From Gammaproteobacteria bacterium (lineage in GTDB: Bacteria; Pseudomonadota; Gammaproteobacteria; GCA-001735895), in NCBI GenBank assembly GCA_050298595.1, contig JBNKUM010000067.1, forward strand, positions 2,976-66,975: 64,000 bases of DNA, written 5' to 3'. Below the pieces are notes generated by a model. That model had not been told where the DNA came from and made no database searches. It was given only the letters and a program-made list of their open reading frames with translations. Below, piece by piece: positions 6,663 through 62,697 of this stretch (position 1 is its first letter; each line of letters begins with the position of its first letter). A program made the translations under genes and the position numbers.

Positions 6663-6852
6663 AACAACCCAAAAGAAACCGAACTCGACATAATTTAACA
6701 GCCATTTAATCTAATTAAATAGCTATTAACTGGTAGATTCAGTCATTTCATCCAGCAGCTTTTTGGGATGAATCAGGGCATCCAGCTGGTTATCGTAAAT
6801 CTTGCCCAATAACTGAGCCACATGTTAAATCTTTATTTTTTATCTGACTTGA

Positions 6853-7112
6853 ACCTAGAATCCGCAGTTGGACGAATTGTAGTGCGTTTGTGGTGGTAAC
6901 GCAGAGATACGCCGCCTCAAACGTGCAATTCAGCTCGTAGCGGGACTCACCTGTTGGGTTTTCAGCATGGATGCTGTTATTTCGCGAATGCATGGAAGCA
7001 TAGGAGCGTGAAAATACAAACTGACTATGATCGTTTACGAAACAGTGGGTTACTCTCCAATGCGAGCGGTTAACTGCGGAATCCAGGTTAAAGGGAGTTG
7101 CTATCACCTAAG
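6853..7112. repeat. Noncoding repeat element, copy A. It has a roughly 110-nt conserved core (6895-7010) flanked by imperfect inverted repeats, gaatccgcagttgg and aactgcggaatcc.
   Basis: The core is about 85% identical to 40246-40350 (caattcagctcgtagc…ggttttcagcatggatg.tgttatttcgcgaatgcatgga); in the two copies open frames are kept in different phases, which argues against coding. Confidence 0.6.
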
Positions 7113-39533: not shown

Positions 39534-40202
39534 ATGAAACGAACCATTAAGTCACTATCATTCAGGGCTGAATTTTCAATTGTGATCCTTATCGCTTTTG
39601 GATACTTCATGTTATCCAGCCTGCTTTTCATTTTTATCCCATACACTAACGCACCTGTTTCTGAGTCTCATCTCAGGTTTTTATTGGTCTACGAAACTTT
39701 GGTAACCATAGCGCTTTGGAAATTTTTATCTTTTCGAGGGTGGAAGATTCAACAGTTAGGATTAGTGCCTTCGATTCGAGATACTCTTATCGGTATTGGA
39801 CTTTTCGTTGTAGCGTACACTGCCTACCTGGTTGTATGGCTAATTTTTAACAACATAGTCACTGGGTTGGAGGATCAATCACGCGGACTTGTTTCTTCCG
39901 GACTAAGTCTGACAACCGTGCTGATAGTTTCCATTCTGAATCCGATCTTTGAAGAGGTCTTTGTGTGTGGCTATATCATCACGGCTCTAAGAAAAATGCG
40001 AAGTATCTCATTCGCTATTAACATGAGTATAGGTATAAGACTTGTTTACCACCTTTATCAAGGTTCGGTCGGGGTTATTGGTATAATCCCGCTGGGATTT
40101 ATCTTTGCGTATTGGTATGCAAAGACGGGACGTTTGTGGCCTGTAGTTATCGCACATGGTCTAATTGACTTTCTGGGCTTATTTGCCTATACGCAAAAGT
40201 AA
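39534..40202 (+). CDS. CPBP (CAAX) family intramembrane metalloprotease
   Basis: Multi-TM protein with EExxxR (FEEVFVCGY), FxxxH and terminal HGLIDF motifs typical of the Abi/CPBP family. Confidence 0.75.
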   Translation: MKRTIKSLSFRAEFSIVILIAFGYFMLSSLLFIFIPYTNAPVSESHLRFLLVYETLVTIALWKFLSFRGWKIQQLGLVPSIRDTLIGIGLFVVAYTAYLVVWLIFNNIVTGLEDQSRGLVSSGLSLTTVLIVSILNPIFEEVFVCGYIITALRKMRSISFAINMSIGIRLVYHLYQGSVGVIGIIPLGFIFAYWYAKTGRLWPVVIAHGLIDFLGLFAYTQK

Positions 40203-40245
40203 GGCTTCCGCGTCCTGCTCACGCCCCTTGCCAATGTCCCGACAG

Positions 40246-40432
40246 GTAAGGTAGAGATACTCCGCCGCAAACGAGCAATTCAGCTCGTAGCAGAATTCAC
40301 CTATTTGGTTTTCAGCATGGATGATGTTATTTCGCGAATGCATGGACGCCTACATGGACGTAGGTGGTACGAGCTCAGGGGTGAGCGAAGGTAGGACAAT
40401 GCAGGACGCCTAAAGGGATTTAGGTGATAGAG
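40246..40432. repeat. Noncoding repeat element, copy B (same family as 6853-7112)
   Basis: About 85% identical core to copy A over roughly 110 nt; the 3' end is conserved (cctaaagggatttaggtgatagag versus ggttaaagggagttgctatcacctaagag); lies 40 nt after the CPBP stop and abuts the GDSL-lipase remnant. Confidence 0.6.
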
Positions 40433-40696
40433 CGAAAGCTGGATGCCAGAGCAAACCGGTATCCAGAGAGTCAATTGCTGGATTGTCATACCCTGTGGTT
40501 GCACCAGCAAAGGCATAATCGGAAAGGATGGCGGAATAATGATTAACCAAATGCTCGACCCAGATGGTACCGTCAGAAAATCTCTTTACGTTGCCGTTAT
40601 CCGTAAGACTGTCACCGAATGTCAAACAGTACTATAACCCAGAGCACTCCCTGAGGTAAAAAGAGAAAAAAACAGAACAAGTACTAAATATTGCAT
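40410..40696 (-). pseudogene. Remnant of a secreted GDSL/SGNH lipase. It has a signal peptide and a GDSL block separated by a frameshift, and is truncated at its C-terminal side where repeat copy B begins.
   Basis: Minus-strand ATG at 40696 gives MQYLVLVLFFSLFTSGSALGYSTV* (a signal peptide). In the +1 frame the sequence continues TFGDSLTDNGN…SDG…W (GDSL block I) but stops after about 70 aa where repeat copy B begins. Confidence 0.6.
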
Positions 40697-41329
40697 ATGA
40701 TTCAGGCCCATACGCGGTCCTCTTTCAACATTATTTGGATATCCAGGAACTTCTGGTCTCGCAGGATCCAGCTCCTGGTACTCTGCAGATTATTTTTGTC
40801 ATTTATGAGTAGCCTTCGTTTAGTAAATCTATATAAACTGATTGTGATTGATGCGATATGTAGGCAGGTTCAAGAACAAACGTAACCCACCCCGTCTTTA
40901 TCATTTTTTGCCCGATTCAAAGTGCTAAATGCTTTGAAATTGACACCATTACCAGGATTAATGGAATCTGCTTGCGTTGCGACGAGAAATGCCGTTGTAA
41001 TGACGGTAACTTGATATGTATTCATCTTCTTTCCATAAGTACTATTGACACTTAGTTAACAGATATTGAATAGGCATACTCTAACGTAAGAGACAAAAAA
41101 CAATAAAAATGGTTGATCTAGCTTGATAGAATAAAAGTTGAGAAGCCGATATTCTAGCAACTCCTTATAACGTTTAACTGCATTAATTCAGAGCTGCTTA
41201 TTCCGCGCGTGTTTTGATTAAAAAAAGTGTCATTTTTGTAGATGACAAGAATCAGGTACACATAAAGTTATTCTTTGAGTGATTCGAAGTGTACCTATCT
41301 AAATACTCAGTACATGTGAACGGCTGCTC

Positions 41330-43030
41330 CTGGCACAGCCTGTGTGAAAACCCTACTTAGGAGTATAATAAGTCATTCAAATAGACAGGTGAAACAATGA
41401 CTGGATTCATTGAAGGCGTAGCCAGAATACAAGCCACCTTATTTCCTGAATTACTTGACGATTACATCAGCGAAGAAAATCCCGTTCGCGTTATTGATGC
41501 CTTTGTCGATAATCTTGACCTCGATAAATTGGGTTTCAAAACCTACCCAGCAATAACCGGTCGTCCTGGTTACCACCCATCCAGCATGCTCAAGCTGTTT
41601 ATCTACGGTTACCTCAATCGTATCCAGTCTTCTCGTCGTTTAGAAAGGGAGTCGGGGCGTAATGTCGAGTTAATGTGGTTACTCGGTCGTCTATCTCCCG
41701 ACTTTAAAACCATAGCTGACTTTAGAAAAGATAATGGTAAAGGCATTAAAAATACCTGTCGAACCTTTATCGATTTGTGCAGACAATTAAATATGTTCAC
41801 CGATGCTATTGTCGCCATTGATGGCAGTAAATTTAAAGCAGTCAATAGTAAAGAAAATAATTACACACCCAAGAAACTACAATTTCATATAGACCGGGTT
41901 GAGAAGCATATCGAAGACTATTTACAACAACTCGATACCGCTGACAGGGCAGAAAAACCAGAGACTGATGGCAGGTCTATCGAAGATAAAATCACCTGGC
42001 TTAAGAAAAGACTCGCTGAGTTAAAGGCACTGGAAGGTGAGGTGGACAATCATCCTGACAAACAACTATCAACAACGGATCCGGACTCTCGATTAATGAA
42101 AACACAAGGGATGACCAGAGTGGTTTGTTACAATGTACAAACGGCCGTTGACCCCAAAAACCACCTGATTGTAGCCCATAAGGTAACGAATACACCTGAT
42201 CGTGGACAACTCTGCGGTGTAGGTAAACTGGCTCAAGACGCACTGGATACTAAAGGGATCACTGTTATTGCTGACAAAGGTTATTACAGTGGCCAGGATA
42301 TCAAAGATGCTCAGGATGCGGGTATGACGGTACTTGTACCCAAAGGTGATACTTCTGGCAGCGAGAAAAAAGGCATATTTAACCGATCCCGGTTCGAATA
42401 CGATGCAGAGCAAGATAGATATATTTGCCCCGCCAAACAAGAGTTATCCTATCGATTCACTTCGGTTGAGAAAGGACTATCGTTAAAGAAGTATTGGGCC
42501 TATGAACCCACTTGTAGGGCTTGCTCGATGAAACCACAATGCTCTAACAGTAATCAGGCTCGTAGAATCACTCGTTGGGTTCATCAGGATAGATTGGATC
42601 AAATGGACAAGTTACTCTCTTCTCAGCCAGAGTGCATGCTCATCAGAAAGCAAACCGTTGAACACCCTTATGGCACGATTAAATGCTGGATGGGATCAAC
42701 TCATTTTTTAACGAGACAATTCAAAAATGTCAGCACCGAAATGAGTCTGCATGTTTTGGCTTACAATTTAAAACGCATGATGTCGTTATTTGGACAGGCT
42801 GGATTAGTCGCCGCAATGACAAAGGTATAGGGATTAATGGCCCATAGTAATTGCATCTATAAAATACGTCGATATGACGTGTTTATTCTTTTGTGTAAGC
42901 CAGACAATTTTCTTATTCATAAAAAGGACTCTGAAAATAAGGAAGCTCAGGACTTAGCATAAGAAGTCTGAATAATGACTGGAGGACGAAATTATTAAGA
43001 TAATAGTTTTTACACAGCCTGGGCACATAC
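41330..43030 (+). mobile_element. IS1182-family insertion sequence (about 1.7 kb) with imperfect terminal inverted repeats
   Basis: Left end …ggcacagcctgtgtgaaaaccc (about 41328-41350) versus right end ttttacacagcctgggcaca (about 43008-43030; its reverse complement gtgcccaggctgtgtaaaa matches). A single transposase ORF lies inside. Confidence 0.6.
41397..42830 (+). CDS. IS1182-family DDE transposase
   Basis: 477 aa; the N-terminus (…LFPE.LDDYI…NPVRVIDAFVD.LDL…GF…) and the downstream DDE region are typical of IS1182/IS5-superfamily transposases. Confidence 0.8.
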   Translation: MTGFIEGVARIQATLFPELLDDYISEENPVRVIDAFVDNLDLDKLGFKTYPAITGRPGYHPSSMLKLFIYGYLNRIQSSRRLERESGRNVELMWLLGRLSPDFKTIADFRKDNGKGIKNTCRTFIDLCRQLNMFTDAIVAIDGSKFKAVNSKENNYTPKKLQFHIDRVEKHIEDYLQQLDTADRAEKPETDGRSIEDKITWLKKRLAELKALEGEVDNHPDKQLSTTDPDSRLMKTQGMTRVVCYNVQTAVDPKNHLIVAHKVTNTPDRGQLCGVGKLAQDALDTKGITVIADKGYYSGQDIKDAQDAGMTVLVPKGDTSGSEKKGIFNRSRFEYDAEQDRYICPAKQELSYRFTSVEKGLSLKKYWAYEPTCRACSMKPQCSNSNQARRITRWVHQDRLDQMDKLLSSQPECMLIRKQTVEHPYGTIKCWMGSTHFLTRQFKNVSTEMSLHVLAYNLKRMMSLFGQAGLVAAMTKV

Positions 43031-43224
43031 CTCCCTTTGCACGGCACATCTTGAACGTCCTCAATTGCATCCCTGTCCCCCACCACCGCCGGGGAGATAC
43101 AAAATCAAACGCAGATGTGCAATCCAGGTATATTTATATCCCTAAACTATTGGCTTGACATTGGAGTAAACTGGAATAGTATATCTGGATATCCGTATAT
43201 GCGTATTACCACAACAGATCTACT

Positions 43225-56537: not shown

Positions 56538-56585
56538 GTCCAACTGCGGAATCCAGGATTATTTTGCCAATCCTCGAATTGTCCG
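56538..56585. repeat. Palindromic REP-like unit (caactgcggaatccagg … cgaattgtcc), same family as the units flanking repeat copy A and the hairpin at 62652-62680
   Basis: gtccaactgcggaatccaggatt matches the reverse complement of 6853-6882 and 7072-7087. Confidence 0.5.
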
Positions 56586-61154: not shown

Positions 61155-62648
61155 ATGGCAAATAAAAATATAGACGTCCTTTTAGTCGGTGCGGGAGCAA
61201 TGAGCGCGACTTTAGGCTCTATGCTCAACCAGCTCGATCAAAACCTTACTATCACCATGGTAGAAAAGCTCGATAAGCCATTACAGGAAAGTAGCGATGG
61301 CTGGAATAATGCAGGCACTGGACATGCCGCTTATTGCGAACTCAACTACACGCCAGAGAAAGAGGACGGAAGTATCGACGTCCATAGAGCCTATGGTATC
61401 AATGCGCGCTACGAAGTAAGCCTGCAATACTGGTCACATCTGGTTAAGAGTGGAGCACTACCATCGCCAGAAAAGTTCATTAACCCTGTCCCGCATATTA
61501 GTTTTGTATGGGGTGAGGCAAACGTAGAGTTTTTACGTAAACGTCATCAGTTATTAATTGAACACCCGATGTTTGAACAAATGGAGTTTACCGAAGACCA
61601 CGAAGTTTTAAAGCAGTGGCTCCCTTTAATGATGAAAAACAGAGATCCTGCGCAAAAGCTCGCTGCTACCAGGGTTTCTTATGGAACCGATGTGAATTTT
61701 GCTGCCGTAAGTAGAGGCATGATTAATCACCTGAAAACTCAGGATAGCTTCAACCTACTACTTAACAGCTCGGTTGAAGATTTAGTACAAAACCCTGACT
61801 CAAGCTGGCAAGCCACTATAAAGAATATTCAGACTGGAGAGACTGAAAAAATTAACGCAAAATTTGTATTTATAGGAGCTGGTGGGGCAGCACTTCCTCT
61901 ATTGCAAAAATCAGGGATTGAGAATATTAATGGTTATGCCGGTTTTCCGGTGAGTGGTCAGTGGCTGGTGTGCAAAAATCCGGATATTGTTAATCAGCAC
62001 ATGGCGAAGGCGTATGGTAAAGCACCGTTAAACGGGCCACCGATGTCTGTACCCCATCTGGACACGCGAATAATCGACGGTGAAAAAGCCTTATTATTTG
62101 GCCCTTTTGCCGGGTTCACTACCAAATTTTTAATCCATGGTTCTATTTTTGATTTATTTAAATCTATTCGTTTAGACAACCTCTGGCCGTTATTAAATGT
62201 TGGCTTAAGAAACTTTGCCCTGATTAAATACCTGATCACTGAAGTCCTGCAAACACATAAGTCGCGCATGGTTGCTTTACGAGATTTCTATCCTGATGCC
62301 AAAAGTTCTGACTGGAAGCTGGCTAAAGCTGGCCAACGCGTTCAAATCATCAAAAAATGTCCCGAAAAGGGTGGCAAATTAGAGTTTGGAACAGAGGTTG
62401 TACACTCGAATGATGGCACATTAGCAGGCTTACTGGGCGCATCTCCTGGCGCATCATTACTGGTACCAATTATTTTAGAAGTTATTGAAGATTGTTTTAG
62501 CGAAAAGCTGGCGACACCGGAATGGCATAAAAAGATTAGACAAATTATCCCATCCTATGGAATATCCATCGTTTCCCATAAGGATTTATTTATGTCGATT
62601 CGTGAAGACACTTTATCTACGCTAAAATTAAACAGGAATTTAAATTGA
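61155..62648 (+). CDS. mqo: Malate:quinone oxidoreductase
   Basis: 497 aa; N-terminal FAD-binding motif (DVLLVGAGAMSATLG) and family-wide conservation (…WNNAGTGHAA.CELNYTP…). Confidence 0.88.
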   Translation: MANKNIDVLLVGAGAMSATLGSMLNQLDQNLTITMVEKLDKPLQESSDGWNNAGTGHAAYCELNYTPEKEDGSIDVHRAYGINARYEVSLQYWSHLVKSGALPSPEKFINPVPHISFVWGEANVEFLRKRHQLLIEHPMFEQMEFTEDHEVLKQWLPLMMKNRDPAQKLAATRVSYGTDVNFAAVSRGMINHLKTQDSFNLLLNSSVEDLVQNPDSSWQATIKNIQTGETEKINAKFVFIGAGGAALPLLQKSGIENINGYAGFPVSGQWLVCKNPDIVNQHMAKAYGKAPLNGPPMSVPHLDTRIIDGEKALLFGPFAGFTTKFLIHGSIFDLFKSIRLDNLWPLLNVGLRNFALIKYLITEVLQTHKSRMVALRDFYPDAKSSDWKLAKAGQRVQIIKKCPEKGGKLEFGTEVVHSNDGTLAGLLGASPGASLLVPIILEVIEDCFSEKLATPEWHKKIRQIIPSYGISIVSHKDLFMSIREDTLSTLKLNRNLN

Positions 62649-62651
62649 ACC

Positions 62652-62680
62652 TGAATCCGCAGTGGCTCAACTGCGGATCC
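62652..62680. terminator. Bidirectional hairpin between the convergent mqo and prpF genes (REP-like)
   Basis: tgaatccgcagt-ggctca-actgcggatcc forms an 11-bp stem immediately after the mqo stop and 18 nt from the prpF stop. Confidence 0.55.
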
Positions 62681-62697
62681 AGCTTGAAAGAAGTTTC

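Follow-up and report, generated by a model that had tools for sequence, protein, structure and literature searches.

A MITE family with IS1380-like ends and a conserved strand-specific fold at two loci of a gammaproteobacterial contig

Insertion sequences of the IS1380 family have terminal repeats of about 15 bp that start with CC and generate target-site duplications of 4-5 bp, and members of the ISEcp1/IS1380 group mobilise resistance genes, for example blaCTX-M. The target of piggyBac is TTAA, and the ERIC and Correia elements duplicate TA, as opposed to the 5 bp that are duplicated by the MITE family described here. The left terminal repeat of ISEcp1 is CCTAGATTCTACGT, and the duplications made by ISEcp1 are 5 bp long and A+T-rich (PMC6061673). 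The piggyBac elements are eukaryotic relatives, for which IS1380 transposases serve as an outgroup (PMC10813416), and the BrickBuilt MITE contains a minisatellite (PMC4596501).

Here we compare with these systems a repeat that is present at two loci of the window, by which we mean the whole 64,000-nt stretch of DNA that was analysed. Judged by FadA, for which the closest named proteins (about 80% identity) are those of Neptuniibacter, Marinobacterium and Amphritea, the window belongs to an uncultured marine gammaproteobacterium that is Oceanospirillales-like; in relatives, contigs of 1.7-3.4 Mb encode FadA at 85-87% identity. The elements to which the repeat belongs are likely to be non-autonomous DNA transposons that derive from an IS1380-family insertion sequence (ISEcp1-like branch) and are probably moved by one in trans, which would tie a MITE family to the ISEcp1/IS1380 group. 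They are an ordinary kind of element, a MITE, and the fold of the family is unusually well conserved. The family was not found described in the literature searched, nor was any MITE tied to the IS1380/ISEcp1 group found there, and a literature search with the terminal-repeat sequence returned only an unrelated primer.

The shared stretch and its two copies in the window

The initial annotation of the window described a conserved noncoding element at two distant loci, and this repeat is real: blastn aligns 6895-7002 with 40245-40352 at 88.0% identity over 108 nt without gaps (E 1e-34), and these are the only two copies within the 64-kb window. Both copies, which we call A and B, lie 3' of the end of a + strand gene, as had been observed. 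The inverted units seen beside copy A are also present (6848-6869 against 7072-7093), and they are the element's own terminal inverted repeats, not separate REP-like units. In contrast, the short 3' motif on which the two copies had been thought to reconverge (taaaggga.tt, ggtgatag/ctatcacc) is an 11-nt match no better than chance (E about 7), which in copy A lies outside the element, beginning in the right target duplication, and in copy B falls within an internal module. The statement that overlapping ORFs occupy different frames in the two copies was wrong, given that both copies keep the same relative frame open across the repeat, and do so on both strands; one + frame is open in 14 of the 16 near-full copies of the 108-nt core among the fetched loci. 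The conclusion drawn from it, that no peptide is conserved, holds for another reason, which is that variable sites are spread evenly over the codon positions (13/14/15). The ratio of synonymous to nonsynonymous changes in the open frame of the core is 19:60, the same as in the other frames, and no codon periodicity was detected in the 16 near-full copies.

Copy A is a complete element. Its parts are as follows:

6849-6853, no strand: left target-site duplication TTGAA, which fits the 5-bp W-T-N-A-W target and is one base off the right copy
6854-7087, + strand: copy A, a complete but internally rearranged MITE of 234 nt, matched by the family profile in three pieces
6854-6872, + strand: left terminal inverted repeat CCTAGAATCCGCAGTTGGA, from the terminal-repeat scan, starting like the ISEcp1 left repeat CCTAGATTC
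6873-6936, + strand: shortened long helix, from the profile matches and a fold that pairs its arms
6937-6942, + strand: conserved GTAGCG motif, invariant or nearly so in the canonical alignment (A3)
6947-6957, + strand: 5' half and loop of the TCACC-N4-5-GGTGA hairpin, which is reconstituted without C2
6958-7007, + strand: C2, a lineage-specific 50-nt insert that splits the hairpin, missing from canonical elements and from the L002 variant
7008-7068, + strand: 3' half of the hairpin (7008-7012) and a variable A+T-rich stretch, profile 173-237
7069-7087, + strand: right terminal inverted repeat GTTAACTGCGGAATCCAGG, from the terminal-repeat scan, equivalent to the IRL side of IS1380-family elements
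7088-7092, no strand: right target-site duplication TTAAA, the 5-bp duplication of the family

The family profile matches copy A as pieces 1-35, 94-173 and 173-237, indicating that this copy lost the apical part of the long helix and gained the 50 nt of C2. The remaining helix has a 5' arm at about 6873-6893 and a 3' arm at about 6894-6936, with the apical part (profile 36-93) deleted. As an RNA, copy A folds at -85.3 kcal/mol (z -4.3), with both ends paired. When 6958-7007 is taken out, the hairpin TCACCCAACAGGTGA is restored and lies, counted from the right end, at nt 77, in agreement with IS1380-family elements. C2 itself contains the mini-palindrome CATGGA(T/A)G twice and, at 6963-6976, a weak terminator-like hairpin. 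Within C2, positions 6963-6985 hold the near-palindromes CAGCATGGATGCTG and TTCGCGAA together with ATGCAT, which also occur in other copies; the first near-palindrome is the weak terminator-like site, and the C2 core TGGAT resembles the terminal repeat CCTGGATTC. The same locus as copy A is present in another MAG (GCA_050297635.1, L002:1212-1397) without the 50-nt insert. About 28 nt past the insert position differ in this variant and the neighbouring protein is identical; either copies have exchanged sequence or the assembly is chimeric at this repeat.

Copy B lies between a CPBP-protease gene and a GDSL-lipase remnant. Its parts, and the remaining pieces of the family in the window, are listed below:

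about 40180-40452, + strand: copy B, an internal fragment with no terminal repeat, with family similarity over 40180-40405 and modules read against other copies
40205-40251, + strand: 47-nt unit, by module comparison
40252-40307, + strand: helix arm with GTAGC and half of the hairpin, by module comparison
40308-40346, + strand: C2, by module comparison
40347-40366, + strand: CCTAC..GTAGG hairpin, by module comparison
40367-40390, + strand: 24-nt unit, by module comparison, followed by further modules to about 40452
40410-40625, - strand: ORF of the GDSL-lipase remnant (Pfam Lipase_GDSL, profile 2-56 of 208, E 6e-4)
56538-56557, + strand: solo terminal-repeat fragment GTCCAACTGCGGAATCCAGG, followed by ATTAT (to 56562), from the repeat scans
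62650-62683, + strand: mini-element of 34 nt made of two terminal repeats and a 5-nt loop (62645-62688 with its perfect TTGAA duplications)

The fold of copy B is not unusually stable (z -1.5). Family similarity begins near 40180, and the copy starts within the CPBP-protease ORF (39534-40202), whose final seven or so codons and stop (40180-40202) resemble the 47-nt unit of the element. The element may supply the C-terminal tail of the protease. On the other side, copy B adjoins an N-terminal GDSL-lipase fragment, as had been reported; the Pfam match, whose score is below the gathering score, covers the first quarter of the domain only. No more than about 40453-40625 of this ORF is lipase-derived, and its tail reads through element sequence. 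It had further been suggested that an event at the element deleted the rest of the lipase gene. The missing sequence is borne out, in that both element ends are absent and the GDSL gene is reduced to its N-terminal quarter, and these features make a deletion plausible; the simplest account is that a deletion or recombination at the element left copy B behind as an internal, immobile piece. The same arrangement is found in another MAG.

Next to the lipase remnant, positions 40626-43100 hold an IS1182-family insertion sequence (transposase 41397-42830; Pfam DUF772 and DDE_Tnp_1_6), which adjoins about 770 nt of A+T-rich non-coding DNA, and the whole region looks decayed. No inverted repeats of this insertion sequence were found at the settings used. 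The IS1182-family element at 41397-42830 was considered as a partner of the MITE and rejected, as the two have no repeats in common. Elsewhere in the window, the solo fragment has no other part of the element adjoining it. The mini-element lies between convergent genes, and its left duplication includes the TGA stop (62646-62648) of the ORF at 61155-62648.

The 108-nt core is one arm of the long helix together with the GTAGCG motif, half of the hairpin and the lineage-specific insert C2. What the two loci share is therefore the core of a mobile element rather than a free-standing RNA gene. The MITE reading accounts for the two conserved intergenic stretches of the window, the stop-codon hairpin, the orphan repeat and the decayed region near the lipase pseudogene.

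Dispersed copies, insertion sites and the canonical form

A 22-mer from C2 was scanned against 185,579 species, with one genome for each, and was found in two of them only. Of the 25 stretches that matched, 24 belong to the MAG 'Gammaproteobacteria bacterium H1.bin.24' (JBNKMF01) and the remaining one to another MAG; several of the matches are in tandem with a spacing of 50 or 97-98 nt. An all-against-all comparison of the matched loci gave 39 repeat segments of 78-582 nt (mostly 130-580), all of them between ORFs. The check for further copies turned up dozens elsewhere in the related MAGs, at 130-590 nt. Short-read contigs that hold the neighbour gene of copy A end exactly at the start of the repeat, and those at copy B do likewise. 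Such breaks are typical of repeats, and assemblies of this lineage evidently break at the element. Among the Logan contigs, L004-L006, L033 and L034 end within a few bases of the element start at both window loci.

Read side by side, the segments share an order of modules: a left end CCTGGAATCCGCAGTTGGACGAG..., 47-nt units in variable number, the initially annotated stretch (GAGATACGCCGCC...GTAGCGGGATTCACCTGCTGG, then GTTTTCAGCATGGATGCTGTTATTTCGCGAATGCATGGA), optional hairpin modules that are in tandem in some segments, and a right part with the end ...GGTCAACTGCGGAATCCAGG. Two changes mark this lineage, in which C2 and related hairpin modules split the small hairpin and the 47-nt units are expanded within the long helix. 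With these variable tandem inserts, the mosaic elements reach lengths of about 590 nt. C2 disrupts the hairpin in most copies of this lineage and such copies are numerous, which speaks against the preferred reading. The large elements of H1.bin.24 (L026:7408-7969, L010:3616-4087 and L027:2701-3160) contain tandem units of 24 nt (GTACGAGACTATGGATGGTCGAAG) and 29 nt (GTAGAACAATGCAGGAGCTATTGTCGAGA), each of which is a small hairpin with GGA in or near its loop.

The marks of transposition are consistent across the collection. Target-site duplications of 5 bp are exact in 36 of 73 elements, comprising 28 of the 57 metagenome elements and 8 of the 16 elements from the related MAGs and the window. 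Flank repeats are never exact at widths of 3, 4, 6, 7 or 8, and the next five bases outward match at three of five positions at most. The target consensus is W-T-N-A-W (TTNAA or ATNAT). A 3-bp TNA duplication, which would point to the IS1031 group of IS5, was rejected because the base beside each TNA belongs to the 5-bp duplication. The terminal inverted repeats are 19 nt long, with 97.7% of cells paired in the end helix of the canonical alignment. Two elements of H1.bin.24, L018:847-1082 and L019:4364-4648, match at 235 of 236 positions once a 47-nt unit and an indel of 2 nt are set aside; the two lie in unrelated flanks (16/70) and their duplications differ, indicating recent movement in H1.bin.24. 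Thus, of the options offered in the initial annotation, that of a MITE-like unit is upheld by the terminal inverted repeats, the 5-bp duplications, the many dispersed copies and the near-identical copies in unrelated flanks.

The insertion sites also bear on the position of the copies relative to genes. Convergent gene pairs are favoured (11 of 26 contexts, against 3 divergent), and every W-T-N-A-W site contains a TAA or TGA triplet in one of its strands. Among 75 elements, 14 have a duplication that includes the stop of a neighbouring ORF (80 codons or longer), as compared with 3.8% of all WT[AG]AW pentamers. Since an insertion on a stop codon would duplicate the stop and be tolerated, this helps to explain the copies that lie just after genes.

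Beyond this lineage, the terminal-repeat pattern occurs in metagenome contigs at no fewer than 120 loci from many environments. We collected 74 distinct repeat-bounded elements with G+C contents from 40% to 67% and sizes of 96-589 nt. The modal size is 228-241 nt and the spacing of the inverted ends is most often 233-239 nt, with about 236 nt the most frequent; shorter size classes lie at about 100, at 126-136 and at 171-203 nt, and other classes are longer. Twenty-seven elements of the modal class were aligned over their whole length to give the canonical alignment (A3). In these, a left repeat is followed by a long imperfect helix, GTAGCG, a small TCACC/GGTGA hairpin, an A+T-rich stretch and a right repeat. 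The profile of the 27 canonical elements matches a 238-nt element (L018:846-1083) end to end (E 3e-37). A blastn search of the plasmid collection with a canonical element gave no match, and of two pattern scans of viral contigs one returned nothing and the other one likely chance hit. A recurrent ORF pair beside solo repeats in the metagenome, which had an IS21-type look, was discarded as a candidate, as it proved to encode multi-haem cytochromes at one locus that had been sampled repeatedly.

The proposed link to IS1380, the conserved fold and rival explanations

Many elements of the family start with CCTAGATTC or CCTGGATTC, and the repeat CCTGGAWTCC... is combined with 5-bp duplications. The ISEcp1 and MITE repeats both start CCT(A/G)GATTC, but they agree at 10 of 14 bases only, diverging after 9-10 bases. 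A second resemblance lies inside the ends. Counting from the outer edge of the left repeat, the hairpin TCACCCATTGGGTGA of ISEcp1 on plasmid pC15-1a starts 76 nt in. Of two environmental ISEcp1-like elements, one has the same hairpin start at nt 76 and the other at nt 85, and for a Ligilactobacillus IS1380-family element the start is nt 75. Thus, TCACC-N4-5-GGTGA is found at nt 75-85 from the left repeat in all four of the IS1380-family elements with recognisable ends. A fifth element, an IS1247-like insertion sequence, has its only similar motif at the start of the transposase gene. Judging from these four elements, the subterminal hairpin may be a hallmark of the IS1380 family. Among the canonical MITEs, 21 of 27 have a hairpin that starts at nt 75-78, counted from the right end, and this match in position indicates that the right side of the MITE corresponds to an IS1380-family left end. 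C2 interrupts the 3' arm of this hairpin as an insertion.

By tblastn, no IS1380-family transposase gene was detected in the 168 fetched loci or in the window, and no insertion sequence with identical terminal repeats was found in the 168 loci; it is for this reason that we infer the partner from the ends of the elements. No transposase protein remnants were found in the canonical elements, whose translations lack significant similarity to three IS1380-family transposases. In environmental assemblies, transposases 83-100% identical to that of ISEcp1 are frequent (proteins P0001-P0120), and the records of ISEcp1-like transposases bear the names of very different organisms, among them Labilibaculum and an ANME-2 archaeon MAG. 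The ISEcp1-like elements at loci L158-L167 have different terminal repeats and the same subterminal hairpin. The partner would be a DDE transposase of the IS1380 family (PF13701/DDE_Tnp_1_4) that binds the terminal repeats of about 19 nt (CCTGGAWTCCGCAGTTG...). Insertion at W-T-N-A-W through a 5-bp staggered cut would duplicate those 5 bp, and insertion onto a stop codon would duplicate the stop and be tolerated.

The fold was assessed on the canonical alignment, where the long helix has covariation support. Of the 54 pairs that RNAalifold predicts, 32 have compensatory changes, and 91.2% of cells are paired, as compared with 75.3% in shuffled alignments (none of 500 reaches the observed value) and 33-40% when the partners are slid. 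Changes on both sides occur in 26 of the 29 pairs of the long helix. The fold is also specific to one strand: the internal helices contain 130 G-U against 10 A-C combinations, the consensus energy is -65 kcal/mol against -33 kcal/mol for the other strand, and in 26 of 27 sequences folded singly it is the forward strand that is the more stable. For both window copies this favoured strand is the + strand, and it would be antisense to transposase reading in a parent insertion sequence, a further point against the preferred reading. The long helix is kept on one strand across hosts of 40-67% G+C. Such strong covariation and strand asymmetry are not needed by a passive deletion derivative and count against a simple MITE reading. 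We put forward as a tentative and rather doubtful proposal that the long helix and conserved loop motifs of the 236-nt element are a working part and not a by-product. One strand would then act as ssDNA or RNA in IS1380-type transposition or its control, and candidate roles for the folded strand are those of a cofactor, a strand marker or a priming signal. If so, this would be a widespread structured nucleic acid that is absent from RNA family libraries. The conserved strand-specific fold is the one feature of the family that merits follow-up.

The same fold could be read in another way, namely that the element is or carries a functional structured RNA (small, 3'-UTR-derived or cis-regulatory) and that its spread by transposition is secondary. 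The strand-specific, covarying long helix fits this reading, as do the conserved unpaired motifs GGCAAGGCG, GCAACGC and GTAGCG, the sense orientation of both window copies after a + strand gene, and the weak terminator-like hairpin in C2. We nevertheless consider it improbable. A search of Rfam for a known RNA family gave no match for the window or for 13 canonical loci, permissive thresholds included, and a conserved sigma-70 promoter was not found. In co-directional contexts of the related MAG the elements are oriented six sense against six antisense, and in the metagenomes seven sense against 13 antisense, so that there is no orientation bias; moreover, copy A is without the apical half of the helix and copy B is without the 5' arm. 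Without a conserved promoter or an orientation bias, a role as regulator of host genes is unsupported, and the small-RNA and cis-regulatory options of the initial annotation did not gain support. The window contains no tRNA genes, and Rfam searches of it at gathering thresholds and, around copy A, at permissive thresholds returned nothing relevant.

Strand-specific folding is likewise expected of elements that are handled as single strands, and the conserved GTAGCG lies a few bases 5' of the small hairpin, itself conserved. These features recall a REP/REPIN-like element moved as ssDNA by a RAYT-type (HUH, Y1) transposase that recognises GTAG and a hairpin. We know of no terminal inverted repeats or target duplications in REP/REPIN or IS200/IS605-type elements. 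The 19-nt terminal inverted repeats and true 5-bp duplications of the present family are marks of DDE transposition, and both the hairpin and its spacing from the end agree with the left ends of IS1380-family elements, so that movement by a RAYT-type enzyme is very improbable.

It is harder still to credit that the tandem modules of this lineage (C2, the CCTAC..GTAGG hairpin and the 24- and 29-nt units) act as a decoy for a GGA-binding regulator of the CsrA/RsmA type. Over 12.2 kb of elements, one strand has 93 occurrences of the motif CANGGANG and the other has 4, and several module types with different stems keep a (U/C)GGA loop. However, these counts are not independent, since the copies descend from few modules; 28% of the GGA motifs lie in predicted hairpin loops, as compared with 10.6% of all bases; the CsrB/Rsm families of Rfam were not matched; there is no orientation bias; and in the 47-nt units the motif is found on the opposite strand. 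Finally, that the two copies form a segmental duplication or are remnants of a protein-coding gene, as the frame open in 14 of 16 core copies might suggest, has next to no probability and is already contradicted by the data given here: the genes flanking copies A and B are unrelated, dozens of copies exist elsewhere, no codon periodicity is seen, and canonical translations lack significant similarity to the three IS1380-family transposases.

Comparison with known systems

The preferred reading, a non-autonomous transposon with IS1380-like ends, places ISEcp1 and the IS1380 elements closest to the family. In copy A, positions 7008-7068 correspond to the ISEcp1 region between IRL and the hairpin. 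Unlike those elements, the MITE has no transposase gene, and it has a covarying long helix beside its other end. The family offers natural variation for studying what IS1380-type transposases recognise, in its 19-nt repeat, its subterminal hairpin and its W-T-N-A-W target. With piggyBac the MITE shares a short A+T-rich target with twofold symmetry, whereas piggyBac elements are autonomous, have eukaryotic hosts and duplicate 4 bp in place of 5 bp. The likeness to REP/REPIN (RAYT) elements consists of a GTAG-type motif by a hairpin and of selection on single-strand folding.

Among bacterial repeats, ERIC/IRU and Correia (NEMIS) elements are likewise small, intergenic and bounded by inverted repeats, with long hairpins and many hosts (PMC10969869). 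They differ from the present family in size, sequence and terminal repeats, and the ERIC and Correia elements have documented effects on mRNA. The BOX and BrickBuilt elements are mosaic in the same manner, with fixed end modules and variable internal tandem units, although their sequences and hosts are unrelated to those of this MITE family. In comparison with BOX and BrickBuilt, the tandem units here are found at two places of a conserved fold, the long helix and the small hairpin.
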